Of a DNA stretch of 59,880 bases, positions 7,355 through 56,279 are shown in pieces. Within the stretch, counting starts at the first letter, position 1. Each line of letters starts with the position of its first letter. Source of the stretch: a virus. Lineage: Duplodnaviria > Caudoviricetes. The notes beneath the pieces are model-generated. The model did no database searches, had not been told where the DNA came from, and saw only the letters and a program-made list of their open reading frames with translations. The stretch covers positions 1 to 59,880 of IMG/VR virus record IMGVR_UViG_3300025888_000275. One strand, 5' to 3'. The position numbers and the translations under genes are program-made.

Positions 7355-10300
7355 ATGATCGCACAAGATACTATCCAGAAAGTACTGTCAGCCGCCAATA
7401 TTACCGAAGTGGTTTCCGAATTTGTGAACCTGAAGAAGAAAGGCGTGAATTACCTGGGCGTTTGCCCTTTTCATAACGAGAAAACCCCGTCGATGGTCGT
7501 CAGTCCGGCCAAAGGTATTTTTAAATGTTTTGGCTGCGGAAAGGCTGGTAATGCCATTAGTTTCGTGATGGAGCATGAAGCGATGACTTATCCGGAAGCG
7601 ATTGAATACGTGGCTAAAAAATACCATGTCGAAATCCCGAAGGTTGAAATGACTGAGGATGAAATGCGCAAACGCAGCGAGCGCGATACACTGTTTGCGA
7701 TGAACCGTGTAGCAGCTACATTTTACGCCGACAACCTGAAGAACCATGGACAGGCTATTACTTACCTGAAAGACCGCGATTTTGATCTGACCGACATTGA
7801 TAAATTTAGTTTGGGAAGTATTGGTGTCGCCTGGGACGAATTTCTGAAACATGCCACATCGCTGGGTTATAATCCACAGCAATTGCACAAAGCCGGATTG
7901 TTGGGAAAGAAGGAGACGGGAGACGGGAGACGGGAGACGGGAGAACGATATTATGACCGATTCCGCGACCGGGTGATATTCCCGTATTTCGATCTGATGG
8001 GTCATGTGGTTGGCTTTACGGGGAGGATACTGCCTTCGACTGCTTCGCGCTCAGGCAGCGATGCCAAGGATGATGGGCAGGCGAAATACCTGAATTCTCC
8101 GGAGACGGAAGTATTTCATAAGGGGAGATTGTTGTATGGCTTATTTCAGGCAAAACAGGCCATTGTGAAGGAAGGAAAAGCTTACCTGGTTGAAGGCAAT
8201 ACCGATGTAATCCGTTTTCATAAACAAGGGCTGACCAATACCATTTGCACATCGGGAACCGCTTTAACGGTTGAACATGCCCGGCTGATCCGCCGGTTTA
8301 CCAACAACCTGACTATCCTGTTCGATGGTGACGGCGCTGGGTTGAAAGCAGCGGTAAAAGGCATTGATATTTGTATTCAGGAGGGATTGAACGTATATGT
8401 GGCCCTGCTTCCAACAGGCGAAGATCCGGACACGTTTGCAAAAGGGAAAAGCCGCGACGAACTGTACCACTGGATTGAGGATAATGAGAAAGATTTTATT
8501 TTGCTGATGTGCGACCTTGCAGCAAAAGACATTGAGCAAAAGCCAGCCGAAAAGGGAAAACTGATCAACGAACTGTTGGACATTGTAAAGAAGGTTCCCG
8601 ATCTGATTACCCGCGAAACTTACTTTTCGGAGGTGGCCAACAAATTCAGTATTGACCGCAAAAAGGTAGAAGCCGGAATTTTTAAGGAAGAGAAAGCTGA
8701 TGAGTTGTTTGGCATGATTGTAAACGAAACGGCCATCCGCGAAAAAGACCAGGTGTTTATCTATACTTCAAAAGAAACCGCTTTTGCCAATACCGGGTCC
8801 GACCTTGAAACGAATTCGATTGTTGTTTCAGGATTATTGACCGCCGTACAGATCGGAAAGCTAAGCGGTATAACTAAAAACTTAGTTTTTGCTGAAGAGT
8901 TTGACTACAAACATTCTACCTCATGTCGCGCAGGGTTGGAAGTTTCGCCGGAAGACATTATTAAAACTCAGCGGCAAATCAAACAGATGAAGTTTCTGGC
9001 AGAAAACGGATTTACGGTGTTGCTGAATTGCGGAGATCGTTATGGAAAAGATCAGGAATACGTTTCATTCTCAACCTTCTATTTTGATTTTCTGGCCGAA
9101 AGCATCAAACCTTACGATCCGGATTCGAAGAAAGAAGCGGTAGAAGCAGCTGCCGAATTCCTGAGCAAGTTGGACAACACGACCATATCGATTAAGACTG
9201 CCGAGATTGCCAAACGTTTCAACCTGTCGAAAGCCGACTTTGCACAGGTGCTGAAACCATTCCTGAGCAAGGTGAAAAACAAGGTGCAGCAGCGCAACGA
9301 GGAAATAATGATCGATGATGAGCATTACGTTTTTTCGATTGAGAAGCTGCCCGATTACGTGGATCAAAAGTTTTTCAATAAATACAATCATTTTGCCGCC
9401 CAGAATAAAGACGGTAAAAAGATATTTTATGTATTTGCCACCGAACATGGCACATTGACCAAAGTTGGGAACTTCTACATGGAACCGCAGTTTCAGGTAT
9501 TTTCAGACGATCCGCTGAAGAACAAACGTATATGTAAACTCAACCATGCCGATTTGCGGTCGTCGAAATACGTGGAGATCCCCAGTAACGAAATGATTGA
9601 ATTTGGAGCGTTCAAAAAGTTCCTTTTCAGGCAGGGTCCTTACCTACTCCGGAATGCCAAAGTATTTCACCTTGACACCATACTTGACTCCATAGCGCTG
9701 AATTTTCCGGTGGCCTACGAGCTGACTATTTTTGGACAGCAGAACGAGGATTTCTATGCCTTCAGCAATGCCGTATTTGCCGAAAACAAGATCAAATACA
9801 TGAACGACCTTGGATTGATTGAACATGGGGATACCACGTTTTATTCGCCCTCCATTTCAGTCATTTATAAGGACGTTCGCAAAGATGAAGATCAGTTTGC
9901 ACTCGACCGCTTCTTTATTTACCGCGAAAACAAAAATGTTCATTTCAAAGAATGGGCTGAATTGGTGCGCGAAGTATATAAAGCGAACGACAACGGCTGC
10001 TGGACGGTACTGATGGCCATCATGTGCGCCTTCAGGAGCGACATTTTCAAGATCGACCGGTTGTTTACCACCCTGTTTTTTATCGGGCCTACCGAGTGCG
10101 GAAAATCGCAGCTGGCACAATCGATCCGTGCGCTGTACATTCACCCCGATGCGCCAATGTTTAACCTGAACTCCGGCACAGACGCCGCATTTTTCACCAT
10201 GCTCCAGCGTTACCGCGATGCGCCGGTAGTGATGGAAGAATACAACGATCAGCAAATTTCAGATATTAAATTTCAGGGATTGAAAGCCTCGATTTACGAC

Positions 10301-11338
10301 GGTGAAGGAAAAACCAAACGACAGGGCGCCCAGGGAACGGCGCTGGATGTTAGCCAGGTAAACGCTGTACCGATTCTGTTGGGTCAGGAAGCTCCGGAAC
10401 GTGACGATGCTTCGCTGGGAAATAGATGTGTATTGTGCCCGGTACCGAAGAAAGAATTATGGAGCGACAACGAGGTGGCTAATTTTCAACTCCTGAAACG
10501 CTGGGAGAAGGAAGGACTTACAGAAATACTCTTCGAAGTATTGAAGTGTAGGCCAATAGTGAGAGATCATTATCAGAACAAATTGCGCATAGTACAAAAA
10601 GAACTCCGCATGGATCTGACCGCCGATCATTCGGCATTTCAAACCAGGATATTAGCGACCGTGTCGCTATTTCTGGCTATGGTGAAGTTATTTGAGGAAC
10701 ATGTTCCGGGGCTGGAATTGCCATTTACCTATTCGGAATTTTACCAGATCGCCCGGAAGAAGCTGATCCAACAGAGCGAAAGCATTACCAGCTCCAACCG
10801 TCTGGCTGTATTCTTCGACACATTTGTACAACTCACTGAAGATACCCGTAACGGGCTGATCCGTGGCAAGGAATATAAGATTGAATTGCTCGATGAGATT
10901 ACCATCCGCGAAGGGCAAAAGAACAGCACCGTGAAGAATTTCGATGAAGGGCCTAAACGCGTATTGTTTGTCCGGCTGGAAGTGATTCACCCCAAATACC
11001 GCGACCGTGTGGGTATTCAGGAACATTTAAAAATGAATAACCTTCAGAACTACCTGAAAGATCACCCGGCCTATATTGGCGCGGTAAAGCATACCACCTT
11101 CACCTGGCAGAACGAAATACGCAACATTGCCGACGATGGCAGCGGCAGGGTGATTTCGACCATGTTCGAAGAATCGAAACGCACCAGCGCCATTGCGCTT
11201 GACTACGAGAAGCTGGGTATTGATCTGGGCAGTTCGAGCCAGATGGAGAGCGTGAAGCCACTAACGCCGGAACAACAGGCTGTCAGTTTGCAATTGCAGA
11301 TGTACCCGAATGGAAAAGGAGATGGTTTGCCATATTAA
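7355..11338 (+). CDS. dnaG: DnaG-type primase fused to a C-terminal P-loop helicase
   Basis: CHC2 zinc finger CPFH..CFGC, RFRDRVIFP, KYLNSPET, Toprim VEG.D and FDGD.AG, Walker A GPTECGKS and Walker-B-like VVMEE. Confidence 0.9.
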   Translation: MIAQDTIQKVLSAANITEVVSEFVNLKKKGVNYLGVCPFHNEKTPSMVVSPAKGIFKCFGCGKAGNAISFVMEHEAMTYPEAIEYVAKKYHVEIPKVEMTEDEMRKRSERDTLFAMNRVAATFYADNLKNHGQAITYLKDRDFDLTDIDKFSLGSIGVAWDEFLKHATSLGYNPQQLHKAGLLGKKETGDGRRETGERYYDRFRDRVIFPYFDLMGHVVGFTGRILPSTASRSGSDAKDDGQAKYLNSPETEVFHKGRLLYGLFQAKQAIVKEGKAYLVEGNTDVIRFHKQGLTNTICTSGTALTVEHARLIRRFTNNLTILFDGDGAGLKAAVKGIDICIQEGLNVYVALLPTGEDPDTFAKGKSRDELYHWIEDNEKDFILLMCDLAAKDIEQKPAEKGKLINELLDIVKKVPDLITRETYFSEVANKFSIDRKKVEAGIFKEEKADELFGMIVNETAIREKDQVFIYTSKETAFANTGSDLETNSIVVSGLLTAVQIGKLSGITKNLVFAEEFDYKHSTSCRAGLEVSPEDIIKTQRQIKQMKFLAENGFTVLLNCGDRYGKDQEYVSFSTFYFDFLAESIKPYDPDSKKEAVEAAAEFLSKLDNTTISIKTAEIAKRFNLSKADFAQVLKPFLSKVKNKVQQRNEEIMIDDEHYVFSIEKLPDYVDQKFFNKYNHFAAQNKDGKKIFYVFATEHGTLTKVGNFYMEPQFQVFSDDPLKNKRICKLNHADLRSSKYVEIPSNEMIEFGAFKKFLFRQGPYLLRNAKVFHLDTILDSIALNFPVAYELTIFGQQNEDFYAFSNAVFAENKIKYMNDLGLIEHGDTTFYSPSISVIYKDVRKDEDQFALDRFFIYRENKNVHFKEWAELVREVYKANDNGCWTVLMAIMCAFRSDIFKIDRLFTTLFFIGPTECGKSQLAQSIRALYIHPDAPMFNLNSGTDAAFFTMLQRYRDAPVVMEEYNDQQISDIKFQGLKASIYDGEGKTKRQGAQGTALDVSQVNAVPILLGQEAPERDDASLGNRCVLCPVPKKELWSDNEVANFQLLKRWEKEGLTEILFEVLKCRPIVRDHYQNKLRIVQKELRMDLTADHSAFQTRILATVSLFLAMVKLFEEHVPGLELPFTYSEFYQIARKKLIQQSESITSSNRLAVFFDTFVQLTEDTRNGLIRGKEYKIELLDEITIREGQKNSTVKNFDEGPKRVLFVRLEVIHPKYRDRVGIQEHLKMNNLQNYLKDHPAYIGAVKHTTFTWQNEIRNIADDGSGRVISTMFEESKRTSAIALDYEKLGIDLGSSSQMESVKPLTPEQQAVSLQLQMYPNGKGDGLPY

Positions 11339-11424
11339 CGTGTTGTAGCTATGAGCAGGTTTGCGTTGCACCACGTATTAAGTTACATAAAACCTATCCG
11401 CAAACTTGCTTATAGGTGCGGTTA
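11336..11424 (+). repeat. attC-like site 1 (TAAC...GTTA imperfect hairpin)
   Basis: TAAC 11336-11339 includes the primase stop; arms CTATGAGCAGGTTTGCG / CGCAAACTTGCTTATAG; GTTA 11421-11424. Confidence 0.7.
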
Positions 11425-11450
11425 TGCGTTGTTATTTAATTATCAATATT

Positions 11451-11816
11451 ATGAATTTAGATATAGGGAACAAACCACTTAAAGAATTGACCGCCGAAAA
11501 CATCATGCAAATTGTAATGATTATCGGGTCTGCTCCTTCATTAGAATTTTGGAACGAACCTGTATTGCTGGATTTTACAAACACATTATTTAGTGATACA
11601 ATAGTTATTGACTATGTCAGTTATAGAAAATCTGACAATAAAAAAAGTTGTCAATACACGTTCTTTTTTGATTTTAAAAGATTCAGTTGGCATTACATTA
11701 AAGATTTTGAAATCTATCATAAATGGCAAAGATACCACAGTAGCAAGCTGGGTCTACCCGAATTGCGTTATCTTATTTCGCAGGGCTTCGATGTCCCGCT
11801 TTATAATAACGCATAA
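11451..11816 (+). CDS. Cassette gene 1, hypothetical
   Basis: AT-rich ORF whose stop lies inside the TAAC of site 2; start at 11451. Confidence 0.7.
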   Translation: MNLDIGNKPLKELTAENIMQIVMIIGSAPSLEFWNEPVLLDFTNTLFSDTIVIDYVSYRKSDNKKSCQYTFFFDFKRFSWHYIKDFEIYHKWQRYHSSKLGLPELRYLISQGFDVPLYNNA

Positions 11817-11931
11817 CGGTCTTTTGCTTGACGCAGGTGGGGAATTTAACCGGATCGCCACCTAAGTACAGATTTCATCCGGTTACTTGTCAGAGAGCGA
11901 ATATGCCCCACTTGACGGCAAGCAAATGTTA
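11814..11931 (+). repeat. attC-like site 2
   Basis: TAAC-GGTCT-TTTGCTTGACGCAGGTGGGG ... CCCCACTTGACGGCAAGCAAA-T-GTTA with an inner stem TAACCGGAT/ATCCGGTTA. Confidence 0.75.
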
Positions 11932-11951
11932 TTGGGCGTTTTAATTAGTCA

Positions 11952-12425
11952 ATGATGAAAAAATACACAAAACAAAAATTACTAGATGCTTTTGATCATT
12001 ACGCAGATTGTCAGACAATAAGAGTAGATCACGAAGAAAACGACTACTTAGAAAATACTATGAGTAGTGTGATGTTTGTGACGTTAGTTGAAAAACTATT
12101 TTATGAAATTGAAATGGGAGTTATGCAAGAATCTGAACCTAAATTTAAAATTGGAGATAGGGTATTTGCTAAATTTGATTACGAAACATCCAGCACCGGA
12201 AGTTTTAAAGATGGAACAGAAAAACAAAGCGTTGAATGTGATGGAAAGGTAGTTGCTGGATATAATAATGATTTAATCGTTGAATCAATTAGTAAATTCA
12301 GGGTTGCCTCATATCAAAATAATGGTTTGATGGGAACAAATTGTTCGAGAAACGCTAAGTCTTGGTATGAAATAAGAGAGGAAACGCTAAAATCTCCGTT
12401 GTCTGCCATTTTAAATGCCCTATAA
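11952..12425 (+). CDS. Cassette gene 2, hypothetical
   Basis: AT-rich ORF with PKFKIGDRV motif; stop lies inside the TAAC of site 3. Confidence 0.7.
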   Translation: MMKKYTKQKLLDAFDHYADCQTIRVDHEENDYLENTMSSVMFVTLVEKLFYEIEMGVMQESEPKFKIGDRVFAKFDYETSSTGSFKDGTEKQSVECDGKVVAGYNNDLIVESISKFRVASYQNNGLMGTNCSRNAKSWYEIREETLKSPLSAILNAL

Positions 12426-12510
12426 CGGTCCCCGTATTGACGCAGTTGGCAACTTGTTCACTGCGTCTGGCTCCGTAAAAGTGTCCGCCAATTGCCGCAA
12501 TACGGTGTTA
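12423..12510 (+). repeat. attC-like site 3
   Basis: TAAC-GGTCC-CCGTATTGACGCAGTTGGC ... GCCAATTGCCGCAATACGG-T-GTTA. Confidence 0.75.
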
Positions 12511-12545
12511 TAATTTGTTTTTAATTACTTATAAAAATTGAAACT

Positions 12546-12734
12546 ATGTCAAGAACTAAAGGAAGTGGTTGGGGCGGTGGAGTTTTACTCTACCAGAAAT
12601 GTCCAATCTGTCAAAAGAAAAAGGCATTATATGATCCATTGCCTCAAAATATATCATTCAAATGCACAAGTTGTAAGGCTCGATTCTACGATGAAAGTTT
12701 GATATGTCGAACTCATCCAGAACCGATTAAATAA
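12546..12734 (+). CDS. Cassette gene 3, small Zn-ribbon protein
   Basis: CPIC...CTSC; followed by TTATAAC. Confidence 0.65.
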   Translation: MSRTKGSGWGGGVLLYQKCPICQKKKALYDPLPQNISFKCTSCKARFYDESLICRTHPEPIK

Positions 12735-12780
12735 ATTATAACGGATACCTATACAAAACACCATTTAAAATCAAACACTT

Positions 12781-13596
12781 ATGAAAAAACTTTTGGCCAG
12801 TTACGAAGCAGAATTGCAGCTTCGTAACTATTGTTATCATACCGTGAAGTGCTATGTCGGGTTAGTCCGATCCTTCATCATGCACTTTTACAAACATCCT
12901 ACCTTTATTTCCGAGGAAGAAATCAAAATTTATCTTCTCAAATCATCTTCTCAGGCACTTTTGAAACAGCGCATCAGCGCAATTAAGCGATTTTATGAGT
13001 TGGTTATTAAGGACCCTCTGAAATTTAAGTATATACAGTACCCGCGAACAGAGCAGCATTTGCCAGATATCCTTTCATTTGATGAAGTGCAACGGCTATT
13101 TACTACCTGTACAAATTTGAAACACAAAGCAATCCTGTTTTTGTTCTACTCTACCGGCATGCGCGAAGGCGAAGTAATCAACCTGAAAATAAAGGATATT
13201 GATAGTGGACTTATGCAAATACATATTCGCCAGGCCAAAGGGAAAAAAGACCGGATTGTTCCGCTATCAGAACCGACGTTAAAAGCCTTACGAGTATATT
13301 TCAAAGAAGAAAAACCCCACAACTACCTGTTCAATGGCCAGTTTTCCGACCGTTATTCAGCCACATCCATTCAGCAATTTGTTAAAAAATATGCTACAAT
13401 TGCCAAAATCAAAAAGCGCGTTTATCCTCACCTTTTGCGCCACTGTTCAGCTACACATTCCTACGAATCAGGGACGGATTTAATGATTCTTCAAAAAATA
13501 TTGGGCCACAGCCAAATAAAAACGACTCAAATTTACACTCATCTTTCAAACAACCTCCTATCAAAAGTAAGAACGCCGGACATGGCGCTTGTATAG
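12781..13596 (+). CDS. Tyrosine recombinase (XerD/integron-integrase-like, without IntI insertion)
   Basis: SAM-like N-terminus (LRNYCYHTVKCY); catalytic GMR, KGKKDR, HLLRH, LGH, IYTH all intact. Confidence 0.92.
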   Translation: MKKLLASYEAELQLRNYCYHTVKCYVGLVRSFIMHFYKHPTFISEEEIKIYLLKSSSQALLKQRISAIKRFYELVIKDPLKFKYIQYPRTEQHLPDILSFDEVQRLFTTCTNLKHKAILFLFYSTGMREGEVINLKIKDIDSGLMQIHIRQAKGKKDRIVPLSEPTLKALRVYFKEEKPHNYLFNGQFSDRYSATSIQQFVKKYATIAKIKKRVYPHLLRHCSATHSYESGTDLMILQKILGHSQIKTTQIYTHLSNNLLSKVRTPDMALV

Positions 13597-13963
13597 GTAA
13601 AGTGTGGACGGAGAAAGAACGCATTGAATGAGATTATCAGATATTTTAAAACCAATAAAAATGGAAAAACTATCAAACAAACAAATGATTGAAGTAATAA
13701 AATTTGTTGTGGAACAAAGAGAAACGCGAGCTTCCAGATTACAGATAAAATTTTTGTGGGGGTATAATCGGGCTGATAACACAATGGAAGAACTTGAAAA
13801 ACTGGGCGTTGTTGGAGAGTCTAAGGGCGTGATTGGTCGTGAGGTAATAATATCACTAAATGATGCAACTAAATTAATTAAGCAACTCAATGATTCATGC
13901 AGCGAATAGCCTGACTTATAACGACGATGATTTATACTCTGTATAATTAAAGTGTGGACGGAG
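13590..13963 (+). repeat. 24-bp direct repeats flanking the FtsK-gamma gene
   Basis: TGTATAGGTAAAGTGTGGACGGAG at 13590-13613 and TGTATAATTAAAGTGTGGACGGAG at 13940-13963 (22/24 identical). Confidence 0.85.
13661..13909 (+). CDS. Stand-alone FtsK gamma (winged-helix) domain protein
   Basis: ASRLQIKFLWGYNRADNTMEELEKLGVVGESKGVIGREVI resembles the FtsK-gamma consensus (S.LQR...IGYNRA.R..E.LE..G.VG...G...REVL). Confidence 0.75.
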   Translation: MEKLSNKQMIEVIKFVVEQRETRASRLQIKFLWGYNRADNTMEELEKLGVVGESKGVIGREVIISLNDATKLIKQLNDSCSE

Positions 13964-13995
13964 TATTGAAAGGGGAAAATAGAGGTTTCAGGAGG

Positions 13996-14020
13996 GATTG
14001 CTTCGTGCCTCGCAATGACG
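13996..14020 (+). repeat. REP-like family A (GATTGCTTCGTGCCTCGCAATGACG), representative copy
   Basis: Identical copies at 21013, 24511, 33112, 40469; reverse copies at 46518 and 59344; variants near 15010, 15815, 23782-23855, 34308, 34780, 53278. Confidence 0.85.
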
Positions 14021-14105
14021 GGTTGAAGGACATTTCCATAATCAGGAGGAAAAAGTTTTGAGAAGGAAAAAAATAATAAAAAAAGCAACTGACAGTCAAA
14101 AGGGT

Positions 14106-14640
14106 GTTCCCGCGTTCCCGCGTTCCCGCACCCCGTGCCCCACGCTTTCAAAAAACCAGAATAAAACGATTTTGCAAATCTCATGCCATTGAAAACCAGA
14201 CAGATAAAGTAAGTAAATAATGATAAAAAAAGTAATAATCTCTCTCTGTAAGTTGCGGGAACGCTGGGTCACGCTGGGTCACGATCTGAAAATTACTAAT
14301 TTTTGGGTCACGGTGGGTCACGGCGGGATAGACGTTTTTAGCCGTGCCCCAACTTTTAATAAAAATAAGTATTTGAAAACTAATGTGTTAATCCGTGGCG
14401 GTTAGTCGCGGGAACGCGGGACAGAGAAATGGCAAAAAAAGGCCTTTTGAAAAAAAAAATATTTTTTTTGCCCGAAAAACCCCAAAAAACCGATAATAAA
14501 TAAACCGAAGTCTATTAAATTTTAATAATCAATAGATATTATTTATAAAATAATATTAAAAAATGTTCAAAAAATTAGAAAAGTAATAAAAAGAAGGGTG
14601 AAAAACTATTTAACAATTTTTAAAAAAGAACCGTTTTGAA
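14106..14640. other. Putative replication origin
   Basis: GTTCCCGC x3 (14106-14129), inverted GCGGGAAC copies (14255, 14408), TGGGTCACG x4, then a long A/T tract; downstream of the primase-helicase. Confidence 0.5.
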
Positions 14641-14809
14641 CACGATTAAAGGATTAAATGATTTACAGGATTAAAAGAGGGGGTCCCTACTCGTATAAGT
14701 TTGCCGGATCTGAGAGCGAAGTTTTCAAACAGATTGGTAGTGGTGTAGCTGTTCAAATGGTTCAGTGGGTAGGAAATGAAGCAATTAAATACTTTAATAA
14801 GATAGCAGT

Positions 14810-15001
14810 ATGACCGTTAAATTTTACATATTTCAGCGCGACGACCAAACGGGAAAAACCCGTGACAGATATTTGTTTAAGGACGAACGGAGTGAATTAG
14901 CAGTTGGTATCCGGGTGAAACACATGAATACGACCTACCAAGTTGATTCGATGGAATTTATTGGTAAGACTCTCAAAGCGGTATGTTTAGAAGTACCTTG
15001 A
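14810..15001 (+). CDS. Small hypothetical protein
   Basis: 63 aa ORF followed by a REP pair and a terminator. Confidence 0.55.
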   Translation: MTVKFYIFQRDDQTGKTRDRYLFKDERSELAVGIRVKHMNTTYQVDSMEFIGKTLKAVCLEVP

Positions 15002-15116
15002 TGCTAATGGATTGCTTCCCGCCACGTTCCTCGCGGTCGCAATGACGGTCAAATCAGCGTCATTGCGAGGCGTTGCGAGGAACGCGGCAAAGCAATCTGT
15101 AATTACTTTATTAACC

Positions 15117-15146
15117 AAGCCTGTTCGTAGTTGAGCAGGCTTTTTT
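15117..15146 (+). terminator. Intrinsic terminator
   Basis: AAGCCTGTTC-GTAGTT-GAGCAGGCTT followed by a T run. Confidence 0.7.
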
Positions 15147-15230
15147 GTTTTTTGAACCCTATGTATAATAATTTTATTATATTCGTAGCGCTTCATTCAC
15201 CGTATTTAACCCCAAATACGGTGAATTTTT

Positions 15231-15749
15231 ATGAGCATACTCAAGAAGAAAAAGAACATTGTTAAGATAAAGGTTCATCCGGTTGTTTACGATTTTTATA
15301 CTGCCCAGTATGGTGAAACTTTTGATTTGAAAGAAGATTCGGTACTTTCCATTATAGTCCCACATGTGTTAACATTGAAGCCAAAAGAATATGAGCCTGA
15401 ACGCATAGCTAATTATAAACAGTTAAATGTGATTGTATGTGATATGATGATTGGATCGGGAAGTGATTGTGCCCAATATATTAATACAGATCACCGGCAT
15501 TTCGTTAGTGACAGGAACCAGTATTATATAAGCAGGTTCCTGGATAGTATTTTAAAGAACATATTTTATAATTACATGCTGGCGTTTATGAGGAGCAATA
15601 AGAAGGCACAACAGAAGGATGCTATATTTGATTTTATGCTGGTTTATAAAATTGAGGAATGTTCGATCAATTTTGATATGCTGAAAAAGAGCTGGGACCG
15701 AAGTGGCGAAAAAAAGGAGTGGAAGGCTAATTGTGTTAATAAATGTTAA
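15231..15749 (+). CDS. Hypothetical protein, candidate late-gene regulator
   Basis: 172 aa; first gene before the head module; helical C-terminus. Confidence 0.55.
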   Translation: MSILKKKKNIVKIKVHPVVYDFYTAQYGETFDLKEDSVLSIIVPHVLTLKPKEYEPERIANYKQLNVIVCDMMIGSGSDCAQYINTDHRHFVSDRNQYYISRFLDSILKNIFYNYMLAFMRSNKKAQQKDAIFDFMLVYKIEECSINFDMLKKSWDRSGEKKEWKANCVNKC

Positions 15750-15878
15750 AATAATAAAAATAAACTACTAACTTTTGTCCCGTGGGAAAATTACGATTGG
15801 AAGGTATGCGGACAGGTTGCCGCGCTTCGCTCGCAATGACGGTAAATAGTAAATGAATAAATAGTAAATAAATACACG

Positions 15879-16319
15879 ATGGATAATTCAAATGTTGGAT
15901 ATTATAACTTAATAGGATTGGAGTGGGTATATGCTGATTTGGTTTCGAGCATTACTTTGATATCGCCAGGGGTTGTCAGGGTTAATCTGGGAACCGGAAT
16001 TGTTTGGAATAAGATTTATTTTACACCTGGTGCTGGAAAGTTTCCAGAGACCAATGGTAATGATGCCAGTGGCGTTTACGTTGATCAAAAATTAGCGGCA
16101 AGTTGTGTTAATGATGATAGTAGCAACTGGGAGGAACTTGATGAATTGAGCAGAAGAAGAGTTATACTTCGACTTACATTTAAGGAAGGGGTTCGAATTG
16201 CAGGAACAAAGGAACGCGGATTTTTACTGTCGGTTTCGAATGAAGACGGCAATGGCAGATATATCAGTATTTCGTCAAGCATGAGATCGGAGGAACGAAG
16301 TAAGTGGGAGGAAGTATAA
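15879..16319 (+). CDS. Hypothetical virion-module protein
   Basis: Beta-rich 146 aa ORF preceding the protease. Confidence 0.6.
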   Translation: MDNSNVGYYNLIGLEWVYADLVSSITLISPGVVRVNLGTGIVWNKIYFTPGAGKFPETNGNDASGVYVDQKLAASCVNDDSSNWEELDELSRRRVILRLTFKEGVRIAGTKERGFLLSVSNEDGNGRYISISSSMRSEERSKWEEV

Positions 16320-16386
16320 CGATTATAAGAATTGCCTTCGACTGCTTCGCGCTCAGGCACCGAGAATTACACGAATTAAGAGAATG

Positions 16387-16418
16387 GGTGTACTCAGAGA
16401 TGGGTACACCTTTTTTTT
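16387..16418 (+). terminator. Intrinsic terminator
   Basis: GGTGTACTC...GGGTACACC followed by T8. Confidence 0.65.
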
Positions 16419-16562
16419 GTTAAAAGATTATTCATCCGATGAACTTAAAGTCATCGGATGAATGGGGTAAATGGTGGAAAAAGGACAATAGAGGGTATTG
16501 CGAGTCCTTTAGCAGGAATAAACAATGAACTAAGATTATACCGACAAAAACTGTATAAGCAG

Positions 16563-17450
16563 ATGAAAGTTTCTAAATTACTTAGTTCGGTACTTTTTGA
16601 GCCATGGATGATGTTGCCGGAGGCAGCAGAATTGCATTTACCAATGATTGCGGCATGGCTGCTGGGTAATGAAATTCAGTTTGAGGAAAAAGGCAGGCTG
16701 GATATACAAATGGCATTCGCCGGTAGAATAAGCCCTGGATTTCCGGAAGATGTTGCCGATATGCCTGATGGATCGGTGGCGATTGTAAACCTTAAAGGTG
16801 AACTTACCAAATATGACGGGATGTGCAGTTACGGTGCCGTAACCACAGGTAACCTGATTAAAACACTTGGAGCTTCAAAAAATATTTCGGGGGTAGTAAT
16901 TGACTTTGACGGTCCCGGAGGATCTGTTAATGCCATTTCGCCTATTATTGAATCAATTCAATTTGTGCAGCGACAGGGAAAACCCATTGTAGGTCATGCC
17001 GACCTGATAGCCAGCGCCCATTTATACGCGGGGGTATATACCGACCATTTGATGATGGATAACACTATTAGTTCGCACATTGGAAGTATAGGTGTAATGA
17101 CTACCCTGATGGATTACCGCGAGAAACTGAAACAGATGGGCGTGGATATGAAAAATATTTATGCTACCCAAAGTACCCACAAAAATTTAGAGTCGGAACA
17201 GGCATTGGAGGGTGACTTTACGCTCCTGAAAAAAAACGTGCTGGACCCGTTAGCGGCCAAATTTCAACAAGCGGTTAGGGAACAACGTGGAGCCAAATTA
17301 AATGAAAAGGTTGACGGTATTTTAAACGGCGCCATGTTTTTTGCCGAAGACGCGGTAAAGAACGGACTGGCCGACAGTATTGGCACTTTGGAAGATTCGA
17401 TACAAAGAGTTCTTGATTTGGTGGAGGTACGGAAGTTTATGAAAAGGTAG
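16563..17450 (+). CDS. S49 (SppA-like) prohead protease
   Basis: DGPGGSV, IASAHLY, IGSIGV, AVKNGLADSIG; likely start MKVSK at 16563. Confidence 0.85.
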   Translation: MKVSKLLSSVLFEPWMMLPEAAELHLPMIAAWLLGNEIQFEEKGRLDIQMAFAGRISPGFPEDVADMPDGSVAIVNLKGELTKYDGMCSYGAVTTGNLIKTLGASKNISGVVIDFDGPGGSVNAISPIIESIQFVQRQGKPIVGHADLIASAHLYAGVYTDHLMMDNTISSHIGSIGVMTTLMDYREKLKQMGVDMKNIYATQSTHKNLESEQALEGDFTLLKKNVLDPLAAKFQQAVREQRGAKLNEKVDGILNGAMFFAEDAVKNGLADSIGTLEDSIQRVLDLVEVRKFMKR

Positions 17451-17623
17451 AAGAAAGTCGCAGTGGTCAGTGGTCAGTCGCAGTGGTCAGTCGCAGTGGT
17501 AAAATGGAGCGGAGACGGGAGACGGGAGACGGGAGACCGGGAGTAAAATTAAAAGTAATGGTCGGAGACCGGTGGTTGATGATCGATTAGTAAAATAGGT
17601 ATTAACAATTAATAATTAAAGCA

Positions 17624-19234
17624 ATGTCGAAAAAACTTGGAAAATTTCAGGAATTAAAATCGATTGCCCTCCGCATGTTGGGTAAGGCTGATTTTGATAA
17701 AGATCCTGATGGAAAAGCTTTCCTTACCGATGACGATAAGGCAAAGATGAAGTCGGCATTTTCGGATGAGTTCATTACGAAATTTGAAAATGCTTTGGAT
17801 TTGTCGGCTGAACTGGACGAACAGCAAGCTTCGGCTACCGCTACTTTGGACCAGTTGAAGTCGGAACACCAAACAGCTCTTGAAACTGCCGTTTCGCAGG
17901 CCAATGCGGCCACCGATCGCGCAACGAAAGCTGAAACTGAAAAAGTACGGTTGGAAGCTGAAAAGAAAGCTTTGCAGGAAACCGTTGATGTATTGAGCCA
18001 TGAAGCTGAAGTGGATGCTCCAGCCGAACGTATTCTTTCGCCTTTGGCAGGGAACGGAGCTGGTGCTGTTAAAGCATGGAACCATGTTAAGGCTGACCGC
18101 AAAAGTTTTCACAACCAGATGGCATTTAGCTACCTGGAAACAGGGGATTCGAGCAAGCTTATTTTGGCACAAGCCACGGATTCGTTTAACTACGGCGCTG
18201 TAAAAGCCAGTGGAAACACGATTAATACCGAAGAGCTTACACGAGAATTTGGTGATTACATGAGCCAATTCAAAATTGAGCTTGAAATCAAGAAGCTTTT
18301 AACCCAGCCAACTGAGAGCCAGAAATACATGACTACCAAAATGGCCATTAAGAGCTGGAAAGCTTCGAAAGCTAAAATTACCAGCATTGTCCAGCAATTT
18401 GTTGCACTGTGGACCCCGCTTGGTAACTCTACTTTCTCGCCGATTGAAATCATCAACCGCAGGCATAAAATTAACGTGCCTATTACCCCGAACGACATTA
18501 CTGACGGATGGTTGACTTACCTGTACAAGGAAGAAGTAACCCCTGACCAAATGCCTATTACCCGGTACATCATTGAACAATTACTTCGCCCTCAAATTGC
18601 GGAGGATATTGAATTGTTGTTGATTGCCACCGGTGTTTACGAAGAGCTGGGAGACGGCATTGTAACTGGAGACTCAGGTCAGGCTACAGGAAAATCGATG
18701 GATGGTTATCTGACCATTTTGAAAGCGCTGAAGGCTAACCCTGCCACGGTTGCCAATTTCTTTGATCCTACTACTGTAGTTGACGGTTTTACCGGAATTG
18801 ATGAAAACAATGTGCTGGTTTTAATTGACGGCTACACCAAATGGATCAAAGCCATTGCCCCTAAGTATCATGCCAAAGGTTTGAACATGTTGATTGACCC
18901 TGAAATTATGGACCTGTACAACTACGCTTACCGCGATAAGTTTGCAGATACCAAAAATCAGGATGGTGAACGTAAGGGACCTGACTTCTCGAAACTGACC
19001 TTTGTCCCGTTGGAAGCCATGCGTGGATCGGGAGTATTCTTCTGTACCCCAACCGATAATTTCATCAGGTTAATCCATACCAACGAAGCCGGTGCAGGCA
19101 CCAACCTGCAACTTCAGGTACAGGATTATACCGTTAAGATTTTCGGTGAGTTCTGGCTTGCCTGCGGTTTTGCCTTGCAGGAATTGATTTTCGCTTATGT
19201 CCCTGAAACAGAATCCAGCGGATCTGGTGCATAG
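17624..19234 (+). CDS. Major capsid protein with N-terminal coiled-coil scaffold
   Basis: Follows the protease; coiled-coil N-terminus; 536 aa; ends ESSGSGA. Confidence 0.7.
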   Translation: MSKKLGKFQELKSIALRMLGKADFDKDPDGKAFLTDDDKAKMKSAFSDEFITKFENALDLSAELDEQQASATATLDQLKSEHQTALETAVSQANAATDRATKAETEKVRLEAEKKALQETVDVLSHEAEVDAPAERILSPLAGNGAGAVKAWNHVKADRKSFHNQMAFSYLETGDSSKLILAQATDSFNYGAVKASGNTINTEELTREFGDYMSQFKIELEIKKLLTQPTESQKYMTTKMAIKSWKASKAKITSIVQQFVALWTPLGNSTFSPIEIINRRHKINVPITPNDITDGWLTYLYKEEVTPDQMPITRYIIEQLLRPQIAEDIELLLIATGVYEELGDGIVTGDSGQATGKSMDGYLTILKALKANPATVANFFDPTTVVDGFTGIDENNVLVLIDGYTKWIKAIAPKYHAKGLNMLIDPEIMDLYNYAYRDKFADTKNQDGERKGPDFSKLTFVPLEAMRGSGVFFCTPTDNFIRLIHTNEAGAGTNLQLQVQDYTVKIFGEFWLACGFALQELIFAYVPETESSGSGA

Positions 19235-19934: not shown

Positions 19935-20969
19935 ATGGAAGACAAAGAAAATCGCAGTGGTCAGTGGTCAGTAGCAGTGGTCAGTGGTCAGTCGCAGTGG
20001 TCAGTGGTCAGTCGCAGTGGTCAGTCGCAGTCGCAGTTGGCAGAAAAAAGGAGTTCGAAGTGCCTAGAGTTCGAAGTGCCTAAAGTTAGGAGAACAAAGA
20101 CTGTAGAAAAACGGCGCTCGTCCGTAAAAATATTTTATCCGTATTGGGCTGGTGCAAGCAAATGGGAAGAACTACGCTACTCGCTTCGGAGCCTTGAAAA
20201 AAATTTCAAAGAAGATTTTGTTGTTTACCTGGTTGGGGATTGCCCTGACTTCCTTCGACAAGCTCAGGAACCGAAGACGGGAGAATGGAGACGGGAGAAC
20301 GGAGAACAGGAAAGTGATCAGTCGCAGTTTACAGAAAACGTAGTGCATATACCATATAAGCGAGATGATACGCGGAGTGGGTTGTGGAATACGACGCGGA
20401 TGATGGAGGTTTTTATGAAAGAAGCGAATTTCACGAATCAGGACGAATTTCACGAAAGTGGGGATTTGTTTGTGCGGATGAATGATGATGTGTATTTGAT
20501 TGGTGAGCGGACGCTGGAGGATTTGATGGTAACCCGGATTGTACGGATGCCTGAAGAGGTGGCGGCTATCCGGTCGGGAAGCGCAACGTGGCGCAGACAG
20601 GTTTTATCGACTCACGAGGAACTTATAAACAGGGAATACCCAGGGTATATGACTGAATCGCATTGCCCGGAAGTGTTTTCGGGCCGATTGATGAACCTCA
20701 TTTACCAGGCTTTTACTTTGCCCGAAAGTGAATTACTGCCCAGCACTCTTTATTACAATGTATTTCCATACCAACACCAGTTGCTTGACAGGAAGACTGA
20801 ACGCGCCCTTTTTTATGGGGAAGAGAATGCGTTTAGTTATTCGTCGGACCGTGTGGCCAAAAAATGCAGGGACAAATATTTTTTAAACCATAATGATTCG
20901 GGACTGAACGAGGAACTGAAGCGGTTTATTGAAGATATGTTTTCAGAGAAAAGCAGGTTTGAAAAATAA
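19935..20969 (+). CDS. Stealth-like sugar-phosphotransferase / glycosyltransferase
   Basis: EELRYSLRSLEKN, VYLVGD.P, MNDDVY, FLNHND motifs; N-terminus built from repeats. Confidence 0.6.
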   Translation: MEDKENRSGQWSVAVVSGQSQWSVVSRSGQSQSQLAEKRSSKCLEFEVPKVRRTKTVEKRRSSVKIFYPYWAGASKWEELRYSLRSLEKNFKEDFVVYLVGDCPDFLRQAQEPKTGEWRRENGEQESDQSQFTENVVHIPYKRDDTRSGLWNTTRMMEVFMKEANFTNQDEFHESGDLFVRMNDDVYLIGERTLEDLMVTRIVRMPEEVAAIRSGSATWRRQVLSTHEELINREYPGYMTESHCPEVFSGRLMNLIYQAFTLPESELLPSTLYYNVFPYQHQLLDRKTERALFYGEENAFSYSSDRVAKKCRDKYFLNHNDSGLNEELKRFIEDMFSEKSRFEK

Positions 20970-27676: not shown

Positions 27677-27729
27677 AGATTATATTTTATTACTGAGTAA
27701 AGTTATGGAATATATTCATCCGATGAACT

Positions 27730-28011
27730 TTAAGTCATCGGATGAATGTGGTGGGTGAGGCCGAGGCAGTGGAAGAATGACATGAGATTGTGCAGACGCT
27801 CGTCGGGTGTGTGGCCGTGGGGATGGATGATTACACGTTTTTCGTAGTTGACGGGTGGTTTGCCGAGGCCGAGGAACTGAATCCGGTTGGCGGATTTTAC
27901 GGGCGCATTGACGAGATGGTGGTGCATGGCCAGTTGACTGGCCAGGTGGATAACTTCGTCGGGGGTGGATGAATAGCGGGAAGGGATGATGACCATTTTC
28001 ATATTTACCAT
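27730..28011 (-). CDS. Hypothetical His-rich protein
   Basis: Part of a reverse-strand cluster; A-rich leader. Confidence 0.45.
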   Translation of the reverse strand: MVNMKMVIIPSRYSSTPDEVIHLASQLAMHHHLVNAPVKSANRIQFLGLGKPPVNYEKRVIIHPHGHTPDERLHNLMSFFHCLGLTHHIHPMT

Positions 28012-29278: not shown

Positions 29279-29656
29279 GCAATGCGACTGATGCAATGTG
29301 ACTGATGCAATGCGACTGATGCAATGCGACTGATGCAATGCGATTGATGCAACATGACTGATGCAACATGACTGATGCAACATGACTGATGCAACATGAC
29401 TGATGCAATGTGACTGATGCAATGCGACTGATGCAATGCGACTGATGCAATGTGACTGATGCAATGCGACTGATGCAATGTGACTGATGCAATGCGACTG
29501 ATGCAATGTGACTGATGCAATGTGACTGATGCAATGCGACTGATGCAATGTGACTGATGCAATGTGACTGATGCAATGTGACTGATGCAATGTGACTGAT
29601 GCAATGTGACTGATGCAATGTGACTGATGCAATGTGACTGATGCAATGTGACTGAT
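29279..29656. repeat. 14-bp tandem array, 27 units
   Basis: GCAATG(T/C)GACTGAT, including four GCAACATGACTGAT variants. Confidence 0.95.
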
Positions 29657-55307: not shown

Positions 55308-56279
55308 ATGAAAAGAAAAGGAAATTTATATCAGGAATTATGCAGCCGCGAAAACATAGCGGCGGCATACGCGGCGGCTAAAAAGGGCAAAATGAAATAC
55401 AGCGAAGTGGAAGCCATTGAAGCCAATCCAGACAAATACCTGGATAAATTACAGGTGATGCTCACTAATAAAACATACCGGACCAGTGATTATGAAGTAT
55501 TCACTAAAGTAAGCGGAAATAAAGTCAGAGAAATATACAAATTGCCGTTTTTCCCTGACCGGATCGTGCATCATTGCATTATACAGGTAGTACAAAAACT
55601 ATGGTTGTCATTATTGATCCGCGATACCTTCAGCACTATACCAGGCAGGGGAATACACGACGGTGTGCGGCGGGTAAAGCTGGCATTGAAAGATGTTGAG
55701 AATACCCGTTATTGCCTGAAAGCCGATGTGCGGAAGTATTATCCATCCATTGACCACGACATCCTGAAATTGATTATCCGGAAGAAAATAAAAGACAATG
55801 ACCTGCTTGAATTGCTCGATCAGATTATTGATTCAGCTTCAGGAATACCAATAGGCAATTATGTCAGTCAGTGGTTTGGAAATATTTATCTGGCCTATTT
55901 CGACCATTTCTGCAAGGAGGAATTGGGCTGCCGTTATTACTTCCGGTATTGTGATGATATTGTGGTACTAGGGAGTAATAAAGAAGAACTACACGCCCAC
56001 ATTATTGCCATCAATCATTATCTGGTAGAAAACCTGAATCTTAATTTAAAATCAAACTACCAGGTATTTCCGATTGATAAAAGGGGGCTTGATTTTTTGG
56101 GATACCGATTTTTTCATGGATACACATTGGTCAGGAAAAGAATAGTACAGCAAATGAAACGTAAATTAAACCATCCCAAAAGCATGAGTAGTTACTGGGG
56201 TTGGTTGAAACATGCAGACACATACAGGTTAACAACTAAATATTTCAAAAATGAAGGGAAATTCAAACAATCGGCCTGA
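55308..56279 (+). CDS. DGR reverse transcriptase
   Basis: PDRIVHH, GRGIH, LKADVRKYYPSIDH, GIPIGNYVSQ, YCDD, DFLGY motifs. Confidence 0.95.
   Translation: MKRKGNLYQELCSRENIAAAYAAAKKGKMKYSEVEAIEANPDKYLDKLQVMLTNKTYRTSDYEVFTKVSGNKVREIYKLPFFPDRIVHHCIIQVVQKLWLSLLIRDTFSTIPGRGIHDGVRRVKLALKDVENTRYCLKADVRKYYPSIDHDILKLIIRKKIKDNDLLELLDQIIDSASGIPIGNYVSQWFGNIYLAYFDHFCKEELGCRYYFRYCDDIVVLGSNKEELHAHIIAINHYLVENLNLNLKSNYQVFPIDKRGLDFLGYRFFHGYTLVRKRIVQQMKRKLNHPKSMSSYWGWLKHADTYRLTTKYFKNEGKFKQSA

Follow-up and report, generated by a model that had tools for sequence, protein, structure and literature searches.

A free-standing FtsK-gamma-type gene beside a Xer-like recombinase gene in a Bacteroidota phage

The gamma domain of FtsK is a bifunctional textbook domain that reads polar DNA motifs and switches on XerD. 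In a phage record of 59,880 nucleotides (IMGVR_UViG_3300025888_000275; the whole stretch analysed, hereafter the window), a small gene resembling this domain stands alone, just after a gene for a Xer-like recombinase. Does it serve that recombinase, act on the host, or occupy this place for some other reason? A preliminary description, made from the letters of the sequence, had offered three readings: a dedicated activator of the recombinase, a decoy affecting host dimer resolution, or a further captured cassette. The locus is laid out as follows, in window coordinates.

12737..12760, + strand: conserved leader (TATAACGGATACCTATACAAAAC) upstream of the recombinase gene
12781..13596, + strand: Xer-like tyrosine recombinase, 271 aa, Phage_integrase and SAM_4
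12800..12828, no strand: 11-7-11 palindrome GTTACGAAGCA-GAATTGC-AGCTTCGTAAC, recombinase codons 7–16
13590..13613, + strand: direct repeat copy 1 (TGTATAGGTAAAGTGTGGACGGAG), overlapping the recombinase stop TAG at 13594–13596
13614..13640, + strand: piece of a dispersed intergenic module (AAAGAACGCATTGAATGAGATTAT...), containing the upstream ATG 13628
13661..13909, + strand: stand-alone FtsK-gamma winged-helix protein gene, 82 aa (93 aa from ATG 13628)
13917..13937, + strand: TATAACG-N9-TATAC element downstream of gamma, resembling the leader 5′ of the recombinase gene
13932..13946, + strand: mini hairpin TTATAC-TCT-GTATAA, not significant
13940..13963, + strand: direct repeat copy 2 (TGTATAATTAAAGTGTGGACGGAG)
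13987..14021, + strand: dispersed repeat copy (..GATTGCTTCGTGCCTCGCAATGACGG), in at least 6 places in the window; families D12, D15 and I23–I25
14100..14425, no strand: iteron-rich non-coding spacer between gamma and the head-gene block

The ORF at 13628..13909 matches the Pfam profile PF09397 (FtsK_gamma) with an E-value of 2.1e-13 and 50.2 bits, above the cut-off of 30.6; the match spans residues 19–75 and profile positions 6–62 of 63. A six-frame search of the whole record with this profile recovered the same ORF at 49.3 bits, and a Pfam scan of the protein at E<=1 returned FtsK_gamma alone, with no match to DUF3653. The AlphaFold2 model, with a mean pLDDT of 87.3, is a winged helix. By Foldseek, its first nine matches in the PDB were FtsK gamma domains of P. 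aeruginosa and E. coli (2J5O, 2J5P, 2VE8 and 2VE9), with an rmsd of 1.0–2.1 Å, 34–41% identity and target-normalised TM-scores of 0.68–0.82. Profile and fold agree, bearing out the gamma-like identity first suggested for the ORF. Gene callers of public collections place the start at ATG 13661, giving 82 residues; because ATG 13628 sits within a dispersed intergenic repeat, 13661 is the likelier start and probably the one in use. No match to the FtsK motor (PF01580) was found in six frames across the whole record, and an ORF of 82–93 residues in such a record is therefore not an FtsK/SpoIIIE DNA translocase. The gene encodes a real, free-standing FtsK-gamma-type winged-helix protein.

The protein shares its Pfam family, winged-helix fold and G-Y-N-R motif with the gamma domains of FtsK/SpoIIIE (2J5P, 2J5O, 2VE8, 2VE9 and 5DCF), to which it is 34–41% identical over 56–64 aligned columns. 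Unlike them, it is a free-standing protein of 82 residues with no motor in the record, and it has a predicted extra C-terminal helix at residues 77–91. Its Pfam score of 50 bits is about half of the 101–105 bits of Bacteroidota FtsK gamma domains. N1296, R1300 and E1303 are recognition-helix residues of KOPS-reading gamma domains, and R1300 of E. coli FtsK gamma has a role in KOPS reading. The recognition-helix motif GYNR of the phage protein aligns with that of the E. coli and P. aeruginosa domains; N47 and E54 are retained at the N1296 and E1303 positions, and the R1300 position is N51. The E. coli KOPS occurs six times on the + strand and eight times on the − strand of the record and is not polar, although this motif is that of E. 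coli and may not be the host's. The motif-polarity scan found no B. subtilis SRS in the record. For Lactococcus, PMC8190038 gives the motif as GAGAAG.

The protein belongs to a group of gamma proteins, stand-alone or in tandem, that is widespread among phages and other mobile elements. At E<=1e-3, we found 368 relatives among 1.84 billion representatives. Among the 150 listed, 22 are of 110 residues or fewer (the phage protein included), 73 of 111–350 and 55 longer. All ten relatives sampled carried two or three gamma stretches each; above Pfam cut-offs, six of the ten showed gamma alone, two gamma with the FtsK motor, one gamma with DUF4236 alone and one gamma with DUF4236 and an AAA ATPase. 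Against stand-alone forms the phage protein scores 58.5–77.4 bits at 36–50% identity, and against the FtsK gamma domains of three Bacteroidota MAGs 43.5–46.2 bits at 37–39%. Gamma-like matches occur in 138 GenBank phage records. Annotation was present in 35 of the 40 rows listed, most of these under 'FtsK-like DNA translocase/protein' features and seven under RdgC-type ones. In StevieRay, the sole GenBank context inspected, gamma adjoins RecE/RecT and RusA genes. A word-based search for close relatives returned nothing besides the protein itself; neither a single-protein scan of viral contigs nor a scan of genome contigs with the gamma alignment A2 gave a match. A scan of metagenome contigs gave three loci, of which one alone (L091) is long; there the match falls at the C-terminal end of an ORF of 385 aa, and the surroundings are rich in GC. 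Stand-alone phage genes of this kind have been reported before: the available part of Kazantseva et al. 2021 (PMC8190038) describes FtsK_gamma as occasionally a separate ORF in phages, with role unknown, and the present gene adds a case.

The gene directly upstream, at 12781..13596, proved to be a Xer-like recombinase, as had been supposed. It matches PF00589 (Phage_integrase) with an E-value of 1.3e-39 and 136.2 bits (cut-off 27.1) and has an N-terminal SAM_4 domain. In an 11-sequence alignment R128, K153, R220, H243 and Y252 do not vary and H217 hardly does; the catalytic set is intact, as in members of the tyrosine recombinase superfamily. The best NCBIfam match was XerA_Arch (NF040815), at 208.6 bits below its cut-off of 220; XerD (TIGR02225) scored 165.3 bits and XerC (TIGR02224) 162.3 bits, below their cut-offs of 329.6 and 335.15. 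The nearest solved relatives are XerA (5HXY and 4A8E), then IntI4 and XerD. Six-frame searches of the whole 59.9-kb record gave one hit for PF00589 and no match to PF00239 or PF00665, so that this is the sole recombinase recognised in the record. Nucleotide similarity to five homologous loci (L093, L094, L095, L002 and L003) starts at 12736–12739, and the leader at 12737..12760 marks the left edge of a horizontally shared recombinase module. With the closest recombinases (84–91% identical) the similarity covers 12736–13605 only, and within ~5 kb their genomes hold no other protein in common with this phage. The module, of ~860 nt and with sharp borders, moves between unrelated Bacteroidota phages. 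An 11-nt inverted repeat, TACCTATACAA, occurs exactly at 12746(+) and 13589(−) only, its leader arm covering 12746–12756.

The gamma segment lies between the 3′ end of this self-contained module and the iteron-rich spacer before the head genes. In two syntenic phages, L004 and L005, the order is recombinase, terminator, an iteron spacer of ~0.5 kb, a 174/151-aa ORF, a 125/154-aa ORF, an SppA-like protease and a capsid-region gene; there is no gamma. By this comparison, we read gamma as an accessory, lineage-specific insertion of 326 nt (13614–13939). The spacer here carries units of GTTCCCGC, GCGGGAAC and GGGTCACG in both orientations; at the equivalent position without a gamma gene are GGGAAC-type iterons in L005 and TTGTAATTT-type iterons in L004. 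The 24-bp direct repeats reported to bracket gamma are present, with 22 of 24 positions agreeing between 13590–13613 and 13940–13963. A 16-mer within them, TAAAGTGTGGACGGAG, is exact in both copies and has no third place in the window at <=3 mismatches (shuffled sequences averaged 0.34 such matches, with two reached in 3 of 100). The first 16 nt of the repeat match the recombinase module's conserved 3′ end, agreeing with that of the L095 recombinase gene at 12 of 16 positions in copy 1 and 14 of 16 in copy 2. We take the repeat to be the duplicated 3′ junction of the recombinase gene; it has no recombinase-type inverted arms. Its pattern had no match in IMG/VR contigs, a set from which the window's own record was possibly left out.

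Further repeats surround the segment. In family D17, 13606–13642 is 86% identical to 48603–48639 and 68% identical to 30739–30775. A scan of 12400–15300 for promoters and terminators gave no enrichment over shuffles, with 13 sigma-70-type sites against 8.0 ± 2.7, and blastn of 12700–14100 against GenBank phages gave no match. The TATAAC at 13917 and the hairpin TTATAC-TCT-GTATAA, both remarked on earlier as echoes of cassette ends, are indeed present. The hairpin (13932–13946) lies outside the minimum-energy fold, and its region is no more stable than shuffles, 59 of 200 of which equal or surpass it (z −0.56); the hairpin is a chance occurrence. The pattern TATAACG-N(4-12)-TATAC, chosen post hoc, occurs in the window only at 12737 and 13917, with 0.06 expected. 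Motifs of the ATAACGG type recur 38–50 nt upstream of five start codons, and the TATAAC-type motif recurs 5′ of several genes in the manner of a promoter-proximal element. As this motif is promoter-proximal-like, the repeat lacks inverted arms and the hairpin is due to chance, we found no evidence of capture by the recombinase. The suggestion of a further captured cassette holds in that a lineage-specific segment with a flanking duplication was inserted, and is unsupported in its second part, that the recombinase captured it.

We hold, with moderate confidence, that gamma is a real free-standing domain protein carried on an accessory insertion, an optional DNA-binding factor and not the recombinase's obligatory partner. 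The segment would have entered by recombination among the many putatively regulatory repeats dispersed between the phage's genes, leaving the 24-nt repeat, which would not be a recombinase recognition site. Such an insertion would be akin to gene shuffling by the promoter/stem-loop (PeSL) cassettes of T4-type phages. In the available parts of the sources (Arbiol et al. 2010, PMC2839356; PMC4122927), accessory genes there likewise lie between repeated intergenic regulatory sequences, and the repeats mediate insertion, deletion and replacement of small accessory genes (PMC2839356). At the present locus gamma has dispersed intergenic modules on its flanks and is missing from the same position in syntenic phages. 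Unlike PeSL as described in those parts, the repeats here have other sequences and belong to another phage group and host phylum; we saw no mini-circle and no recombinant variant between dispersed repeat units. Gamma itself would bind DNA sequence-specifically through its conserved G-Y-N-R recognition helix and may act in phage DNA metabolism or regulation.

We compared the assembled contigs of four out of six peat-metagenome runs over 8000–18000. Run X2 has a further variant of equal depth at 12743. None of these contigs joined 13613 to 13964, as a gamma-less form would, or showed a strand-switch joint at the 11-nt inverted repeat. Since contigs drop rare variants, this says nothing about absence of the gamma-less form. 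The joints listed were set aside, as their short sides were all 21–25 nt and fell at dispersed repeats. A gamma-less sister strain of the phage was not found, and we infer the mode of insertion from one genome.

One could instead suppose that gamma is an optional activator or directionality factor that contacts the Xer-like recombinase as FtsK gamma or XafT contacts XerD, so that the phage could recombine at its own site without the septal FtsK of the host. FtsK gamma is, after all, a known XerD activator, and the two genes lie side by side on one strand. A scan of 12400–15300 gave no terminator between them, and gamma is therefore probably co-transcribed with the recombinase. In L002–L005, a hairpin with a T-run stands directly 3′ of the recombinase gene; gamma here abuts the recombinase without one, and co-expression would suit a functional pairing, which counts against the reading we favour. 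A nine-residue gamma peptide, RQFRIGYNR, suffices in a fusion (PMC5052618), and its equivalent in the phage protein, IKFLWGYNR, is identical at 5 of 9 positions. Another stand-alone gamma locus, L059, has a tyrosine recombinase 1.5 kb away. The satellite TLC-phi codes for its own XerD activator, XafT (DUF3653; PMC6744903, PMC9226527), likewise a small mobile-element protein that could free Xer-type recombination from FtsK, and XafT may serve as a working analogue. For XafT no sequence homology to FtsK is reported (PMC6744903), whereas the phage protein matches FtsK_gamma and not DUF3653; XafT also serves elements that use the host XerCD, whereas this phage has its own recombinase.

Against such a role stands the distribution of the two genes, which lack linkage; the idea of a dedicated activator does not survive it. 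None of seven recombinase homologues (L002–L005 and L093–L095; 48–91% identity) has a gamma gene within ~5 kb. In three MAGs with the closest recombinases (89–91% identical) the host FtsK is the sole gamma match, though the MAGs may be incomplete. Conversely, only 4 of 80 gamma-bearing viral loci have a tyrosine recombinase within ~4 kb, as does one of five complete stand-alone gamma loci. The residues argue the same way. In E. coli the salt-bridge pair FtsK R1289 and XerD E184 is the one whose mutation most reduced recombination (PMC5052618); the equivalents here are I40 in gamma and P165 in the neighbouring recombinase. Thus a residue critical for XerD activation is Ile in the phage protein, and across the stand-alone family it varies among R, L and I. 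Neither RQFRIGYNR nor the R1289–E184 pair, the marks of an E. coli-type XerD-activating gamma, was found here. The recombinase is nearest archaeal XerA, which, in the available part of PMC5357621, works without FtsK, and free gamma is reportedly efficient on XerD only when brought by translocation or in fusion with a recombinase (PMC6744903). A complex prediction from alignments of recombinase 90–271 and gamma 12–93, run without controls, scored 0.13 against a mark of 0.32 and counts neither way. We consider an activating role unlikely; the comparative evidence predicts that gamma is dispensable for the recombinase.

A fuller version joins a free gamma to a self-contained Xer-like recombinase with a lox/dif-like site in its own gene, gamma acting as a switch in trans or directionality factor. 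Though decidedly unlikely, it would amount to an FtsK-independent, portable recombination unit of ~1.2 kb, and gamma would be the first FtsK-gamma homologue taken over by a mobile element for control of a tyrosine recombinase, unlike the unrelated XafT. Since gamma is probably co-transcribed with the recombinase, the locus is convenient for testing control of a tyrosine recombinase by free gamma.

Gamma could also be aimed at the host, binding KOPS-like motifs or XerD there and so disturbing or hijacking FtsK-guided segregation and dimer resolution during infection or lysogeny. The DNA-recognition helix is kept (GYNR, with Glu at the E1303 position), as is 37–39% identity to Bacteroidota FtsK gamma. 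However, the protein resembles free-standing phage forms more closely than it does the FtsK gamma of hosts; Asn stands at the R1300 position, and Ile at the R1289 position, where the FtsK gamma domains of all three host MAGs have Arg. Such a role is improbable.

The position of gamma directly 5′ of the iteron-rich spacer and head-gene block raises a further reading, in which it is a DNA-binding part separated from a small-terminase-like function and reads the spacer repeats. Portal or terminase-like genes come right after the recombinase in L002, L003, L094 and L059. In the available part of PMC8190038, FtsK_gamma forms the N-terminal domain of a small terminase in Bacillus phages Sam46 and Sam112; these fusions and the single FtsK_gamma genes of phages likewise place gamma outside a translocase. 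Unlike in Sam46 and Sam112 as described there, gamma here is unfused to a terminase and follows a Xer-like recombinase; the phage is one of Bacteroidota, from peat metagenomes. However, L004 and L005 have the iteron spacer without gamma, and gamma is thus not a conserved reader of it. Moreover, no terminase was recognised among the window ORFs scanned, and the 172-aa ORF after the spacer (15231..15749; AlphaFold2 pLDDT 70.8), considered as a possible small terminase, has homologues without names and no Foldseek match better than E 2. We regard a packaging role as very improbable.

Least probable of all is an integron-like event (IntI with attC cassettes), the recombinase capturing gamma site-specifically at the repeat or TATAAC motif: direct repeats do flank the segment, TATAACG-N-TATAC lies only 5′ of the recombinase gene and downstream of gamma, and the recombinase matches IntI4 and the integron-integrase model, but at 173.1 bits, below the cut-off of 265, the match being split in two by a gap opposite extra residues of IntI4, while the repeat lacks inverted arms, the hairpin is not significant, ATAACGG recurs 5′ of unrelated genes as expected of a promoter-proximal element, no comparable repeat flanks any of five other stand-alone gamma loci, and the only recombinase-style palindrome lies within the recombinase gene, not at the borders of gamma.

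That palindrome may be a more useful lead than gamma. Its arms are complementary at 10 of 11 positions here and in L093, L094 and L095, and at 11 of 11 in L003; it has decayed in L002. Between pairs of sequences the palindrome averages 93% identity, where the recombinase gene averages 74.7%; five of the six arm codons are identical, and 46 of 194 codons in the rest of the gene (p 0.0045). From its sequence it is a candidate lox/dif-like core site, with an RNA hairpin or an operator as alternatives. If it is a recombination site, the module would be a very compact enzyme-plus-site unit. Compact single recombinases are likewise found in XerA/dif, XerS/difSL, XerH/difH and Cre/loxP, and XerS is genetically linked to its own site, according to the available part of PMC5357621. 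Unlike in the XerA, XerS, XerH and Cre modules, the candidate site here, one symmetric 11-7-11 palindrome, lies inside the recombinase coding sequence, and the Xer models score below their cut-offs. Each genome has one copy, a scan of viral contigs returned the L003 contig alone, and as RNA the palindrome folds at −19.5 kcal/mol (z −3.27).

The gene that follows the recombinase encodes a real stand-alone FtsK-gamma protein, hereafter gamma. Its ORF (13628..13909, + strand) matched the Pfam FtsK_gamma profile at 50.2 bits (E 2.1e-13), well past the 30.6-bit cut-off, and no other part of the record matched. The AlphaFold2 model, built from a 20-sequence alignment, has a mean pLDDT of 87.3 and a predicted fold that combines three helices with a beta wing and adds one more helix at the C-terminus; compared with the PDB by Foldseek, its ranks 1-9 were all FtsK gamma domains. 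A PDB sequence search agreed, with FtsK gamma matches that included the XerD-gamma fusion 5DCF, and the identity first proposed in the preliminary description is thereby confirmed. Public gene calls start the protein at ATG 13661, giving 82 aa; the upstream ATG 13628 falls within a dispersed intergenic repeat.

The virus record is complete (59,880 nt; 100% by CheckV), is a provirus by IMG/VR class and carries nearly all long ORFs on the + strand. Window DNA is contained in peat-metagenome runs, and the closest recombinase homologues are located in three Bacteroidota MAGs, one labelled Prolixibacteraceae. The gene order is as follows.

Gene order of the phage record
1..393, - strand: repressor-like gene at the left end of the record
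after the repressor-like gene: early genes, an HNH endonuclease among them
after the early genes: 1,327-aa protein with a DnaG primase N-terminus
downstream of the primase: recombinase (12781..13596), gamma, then a non-coding spacer of ~0.7 kb
after the spacer: SppA-like protease and downstream structural ORFs
after the structural ORFs: glycosyltransferase-like genes, then a minor-tail (tape-measure-like) protein
after the minor-tail protein: tail protein with a diversity-generating retroelement, and an endolysin
53834-56279: the diversity-generating retroelement
55308..56279: its reverse transcriptase

The retroelement's variable repeat (54916-55029) lies within the 3′ end of the tail protein gene and differs from the template repeat (55082-55195) by 21 mismatches, all 21 at A in the template. 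ARAGORN reported a tRNA-like gene (1756-1831) with a four-base anticodon, catc, and without an assigned amino acid.

The recombinase, a tyrosine-type enzyme of 271 aa, has a SAM_4-type N-terminal domain, and its catalytic set is intact. Archaeal XerA was its top family model (208.6 bits, cut-off 220), followed by the integron-integrase, XerD and XerC models, every score lying below its cut-off; among solved structures, those of XerA, IntI4 and XerD come nearest. It is the sole tyrosine recombinase of the record, in which searches for serine recombinases and rve-type transposases gave no hit, and it sits mid-record, away from both ends. Together with a 43-nt leader, the gene forms a sharply bounded module of ~860 nt (12736-13605), common to L093, L094 and L095 from MAGs and L002 and L003 from viral contigs at 76-82% nucleotide identity. 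Its contexts, phage or MAG, are otherwise unrelated, often directly before portal or terminase-like genes. In peat run X2 (at 12714-12743), a depth-43 contig stops at 12743, right after TTATAACG, and the depth is 21 for the contig that runs on into the recombinase gene. This drop, seen in the contigs of one run, hints at a second variant diverging at the module's left border.

Gamma looks like an accessory gene inserted at a variable site rather than a conserved partner of the recombinase. Recombinase homologues with usable flanks numbered seven, on viral contigs (identity to the recombinase: L002 87%, L003 84%, L004 65%, L005 48%) and in MAGs (L093 90%, L094 89%, L095 91%), and searches of the fetched flanks found gamma-like sequence at none of them (best tblastn E 0.11 and 0.38). 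The three MAGs have exactly one FtsK_gamma match each, within an ORF of 816-854 aa that is the host FtsK. Nucleotide similarity between the window and the five closest homologues is confined to 12736-13605, no protein besides the recombinase being common to them, and the L095 copy is frameshifted near codon 204. L004 and L005 are phages syntenic with the window, both with homologues of the protease and of one more downstream structural gene, and L005 also with a primase homologue upstream of the recombinase. Their order runs from recombinase through a hairpin with a T-run, an iteron-rich spacer of ~0.5 kb and two small ORFs to the protease, with no gamma between recombinase and protease. Because the homologues, including these syntenic phages, lack gamma in the flanks fetched, sequence comparison identifies it as an insertion found in this lineage of phages alone, with the recombinase module on one side and the spacer on the other. 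Searched from the other side, with an HMM from 11 recombinases, 4 of the best 80 IMG/VR gamma loci had a tyrosine recombinase, as did 8/8 control loci; among the five complete stand-alone gamma loci, L059 was the only one. The co-occurrence suggested for a dedicated activator was thus not borne out.

The 24-nt direct repeat bracketing gamma (13590-13613 and 13940-13963), described at the outset, is real: 22 of 24 positions are identical, and its 16-nt core occurs in the window only in the copies at 13590 and 13940. Copy 1 takes in the stop codon of the recombinase gene, and the initial 16 nt of this repeat are the counterpart of the module's conserved 3′ end; by our own count, copy 2, after gamma, matches the L095 recombinase terminus at 14/16 positions and copy 1 at 12/16. 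Sequence following copy 1 (13606-13642) is part of an intergenic module that recurs at 48603 and 30739, and intergenic repeat families are strewn over the whole genome. We propose that gamma may have recombined in between copies of such dispersed modules, and that the junction at the recombinase 3′ end would have been duplicated during insertion, for which the PeSL cassettes of T4-type phages offer a known parallel (PMC2839356). A comparable bracketing repeat was found at 0/5 of the other stand-alone gamma loci. Contigs of runs X4 and X5, and of X2, which unlike these is flagged as a possible source of the record, span repeat-gamma-repeat without differences, the X2 contig also covering the whole recombinase gene. 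As for the motifs after gamma, the mini hairpin does exist, yet shuffles of the sequence fold just as well. TATAAC had been taken to echo cassette ends; since ATAACGG-type motifs, which number 11 on + and 4 on - in all, lie 38-50 nt before the start codons at 2146, 12781, 25550, 35593 and 48709, these ends behave like a recurrent promoter-proximal element, not cassette borders.

Residues at the XerD-gamma contact bear on the activator reading as well. Keller et al. (PMC5052618) describe the gamma surface touching XerD as a subset of the DNA-contacting surface, with peptide 1289-1297 (RQFRIGYNR) enough in a fusion and the R1289-E184 salt bridge most important. The phage peptide is IKFLWGYNR, with I40 in place of R1289, and recombinase E164-P165 aligns with XerD E183-E184, placing P165 at E184. 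The R1289 position is variable in the stand-alone family and is Arg in all three host FtsK gammas. According to Midonet et al. (PMC6744903), gamma activates XerD efficiently only via translocation or recombinase fusion, which speaks against a free gamma as activator, and XerA-type enzymes are reported to act without FtsK (PMC5357621). The residue differences, the delivery requirement and the FtsK-independence of XerA-type enzymes together lower the activator reading, and we regard any regulatory effect of gamma on the recombinase as rather improbable.

Relatives of gamma are widespread. A profile-free HMMER search of 1.84 billion representatives returned 368 related proteins at E<=1e-3; among the 150 listed, 22, phage gamma included, are of <=110 aa. 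Ten sampled relatives contain two or three gamma stretches each, some with additional FtsK motor, DUF4236 or AAA ATPase domains. At the best 80 IMG/VR loci gamma lies mostly within ORFs of 183-877 aa, with five complete stand-alone genes (L010, L055, L058, L059, L066) and one further cut by a contig end. Stand-alone loci occupy early or DNA-metabolism regions: by reading of translations, gamma in L010 precedes an HNH-like ORF as well as methyltransferase-like ones, and in L055 it lies 1.6 kb upstream of a primase resembling that of the window. GenBank phage records with a gamma match number 138; among the 40 listed, most matches fall within features named 'FtsK-like DNA translocase/protein' and 7 within RdgC-type ones, and the single context inspected has gamma beside RecE/RecT and RusA genes. 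Phage gamma resembles the stand-alone forms more closely than it does the FtsK gamma of Bacteroidota. Stand-alone gamma genes in phages are already on record, with function given as unknown in that account (PMC8190038).

A scan for 11-N(6-8)-11 inverted repeats revealed a palindrome within the recombinase gene.

12800-12828: palindrome GTTACGAAGCA-GAATTGC-AGCTTCGTAAC, 11-7-11 layout, recombinase codons 7-16

The palindrome, of which the window and five further genomes or records have one copy apiece, is retained in L003, L093, L094 and L095 and decayed in L002. Mean pairwise identity is 93% within the site vs 74.7% over the gene, ranking it 12th among 784 sliding windows. Close homologues conserve its synonymous sites, and variation is located in the spacer and at the innermost arm base; across five sequences in frame (the frameshifted L095 was excluded), identical arm codons number 5/6 vs 46/194 elsewhere (one-sided Fisher p 0.0045). 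These features suit a candidate lox/dif-like core site within the enzyme's own gene. A stable RNA hairpin (-19.5 kcal/mol, z -3.27) or an operator would explain the site equally well. A perfect 11-nt inverted repeat also surrounds the gene (TACCTATACAA / TTGTATAGGTA, 12746-12756 and 13589-13599), with exact copies in the window at 12746 and 13589 only; its counterparts in relatives are only 6-8/11 complementary by our own count, and no inversion joint was seen at it in the run contigs.

Iterons that differ from phage to phage fill the spacer behind the recombinase and gamma, and further repeats are spread through the genome.

Iterons and other repeats
window 14100-14425, L005 5915-6165, L004 5990-6270; both orientations: iterons in the spacer
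7898-7958, 17497-17543, 20273-20319, 23720-23780, 33031-33091, 44519-44565; + strand: short arrays of the heptamer GGAGACG
29223-29750: tandem array, 14-nt unit, ~25 or more registers
29607-30056: tandem array, 50-nt unit, 7 copies
6150-48616: dispersed hairpin element ..AAGCCCC..CCTCCCC-N-GGGGAGG..CTTAAAGAAC, 13 copies, after many genes
16430-16463 and 27714-27747: two near-identical 34-nt palindromes (ATTCATCCGATGAACTT.AAGTCATCGGATGAAT), 11 kb apart

The iterons are of GGGAAC/GGGTCAC type in the window and L005 and of TTGTAATTT type in L004, and their spacer might serve as an origin or a pac region, or hold accessory recombinase sites. In the GGAGACG arrays, one of which lies inside the primase ORF, GGAGACGG occurs 19 times on + and 0 on -; AGTCGCAGTGGTCAGT-type arrays often adjoin them. 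Other genes are preceded by a repeat, GATTGCTTCGTGCCTCGCAATGACGG, followed by TAAATAGTAAAT runs. In the peat runs, the hairpin element and the GATTGCTTCGTGCCTCGCAATGACGG/TAAATAGTAAAT repeats reach a depth well beyond that of the phage, so both also occur elsewhere in the peat samples.
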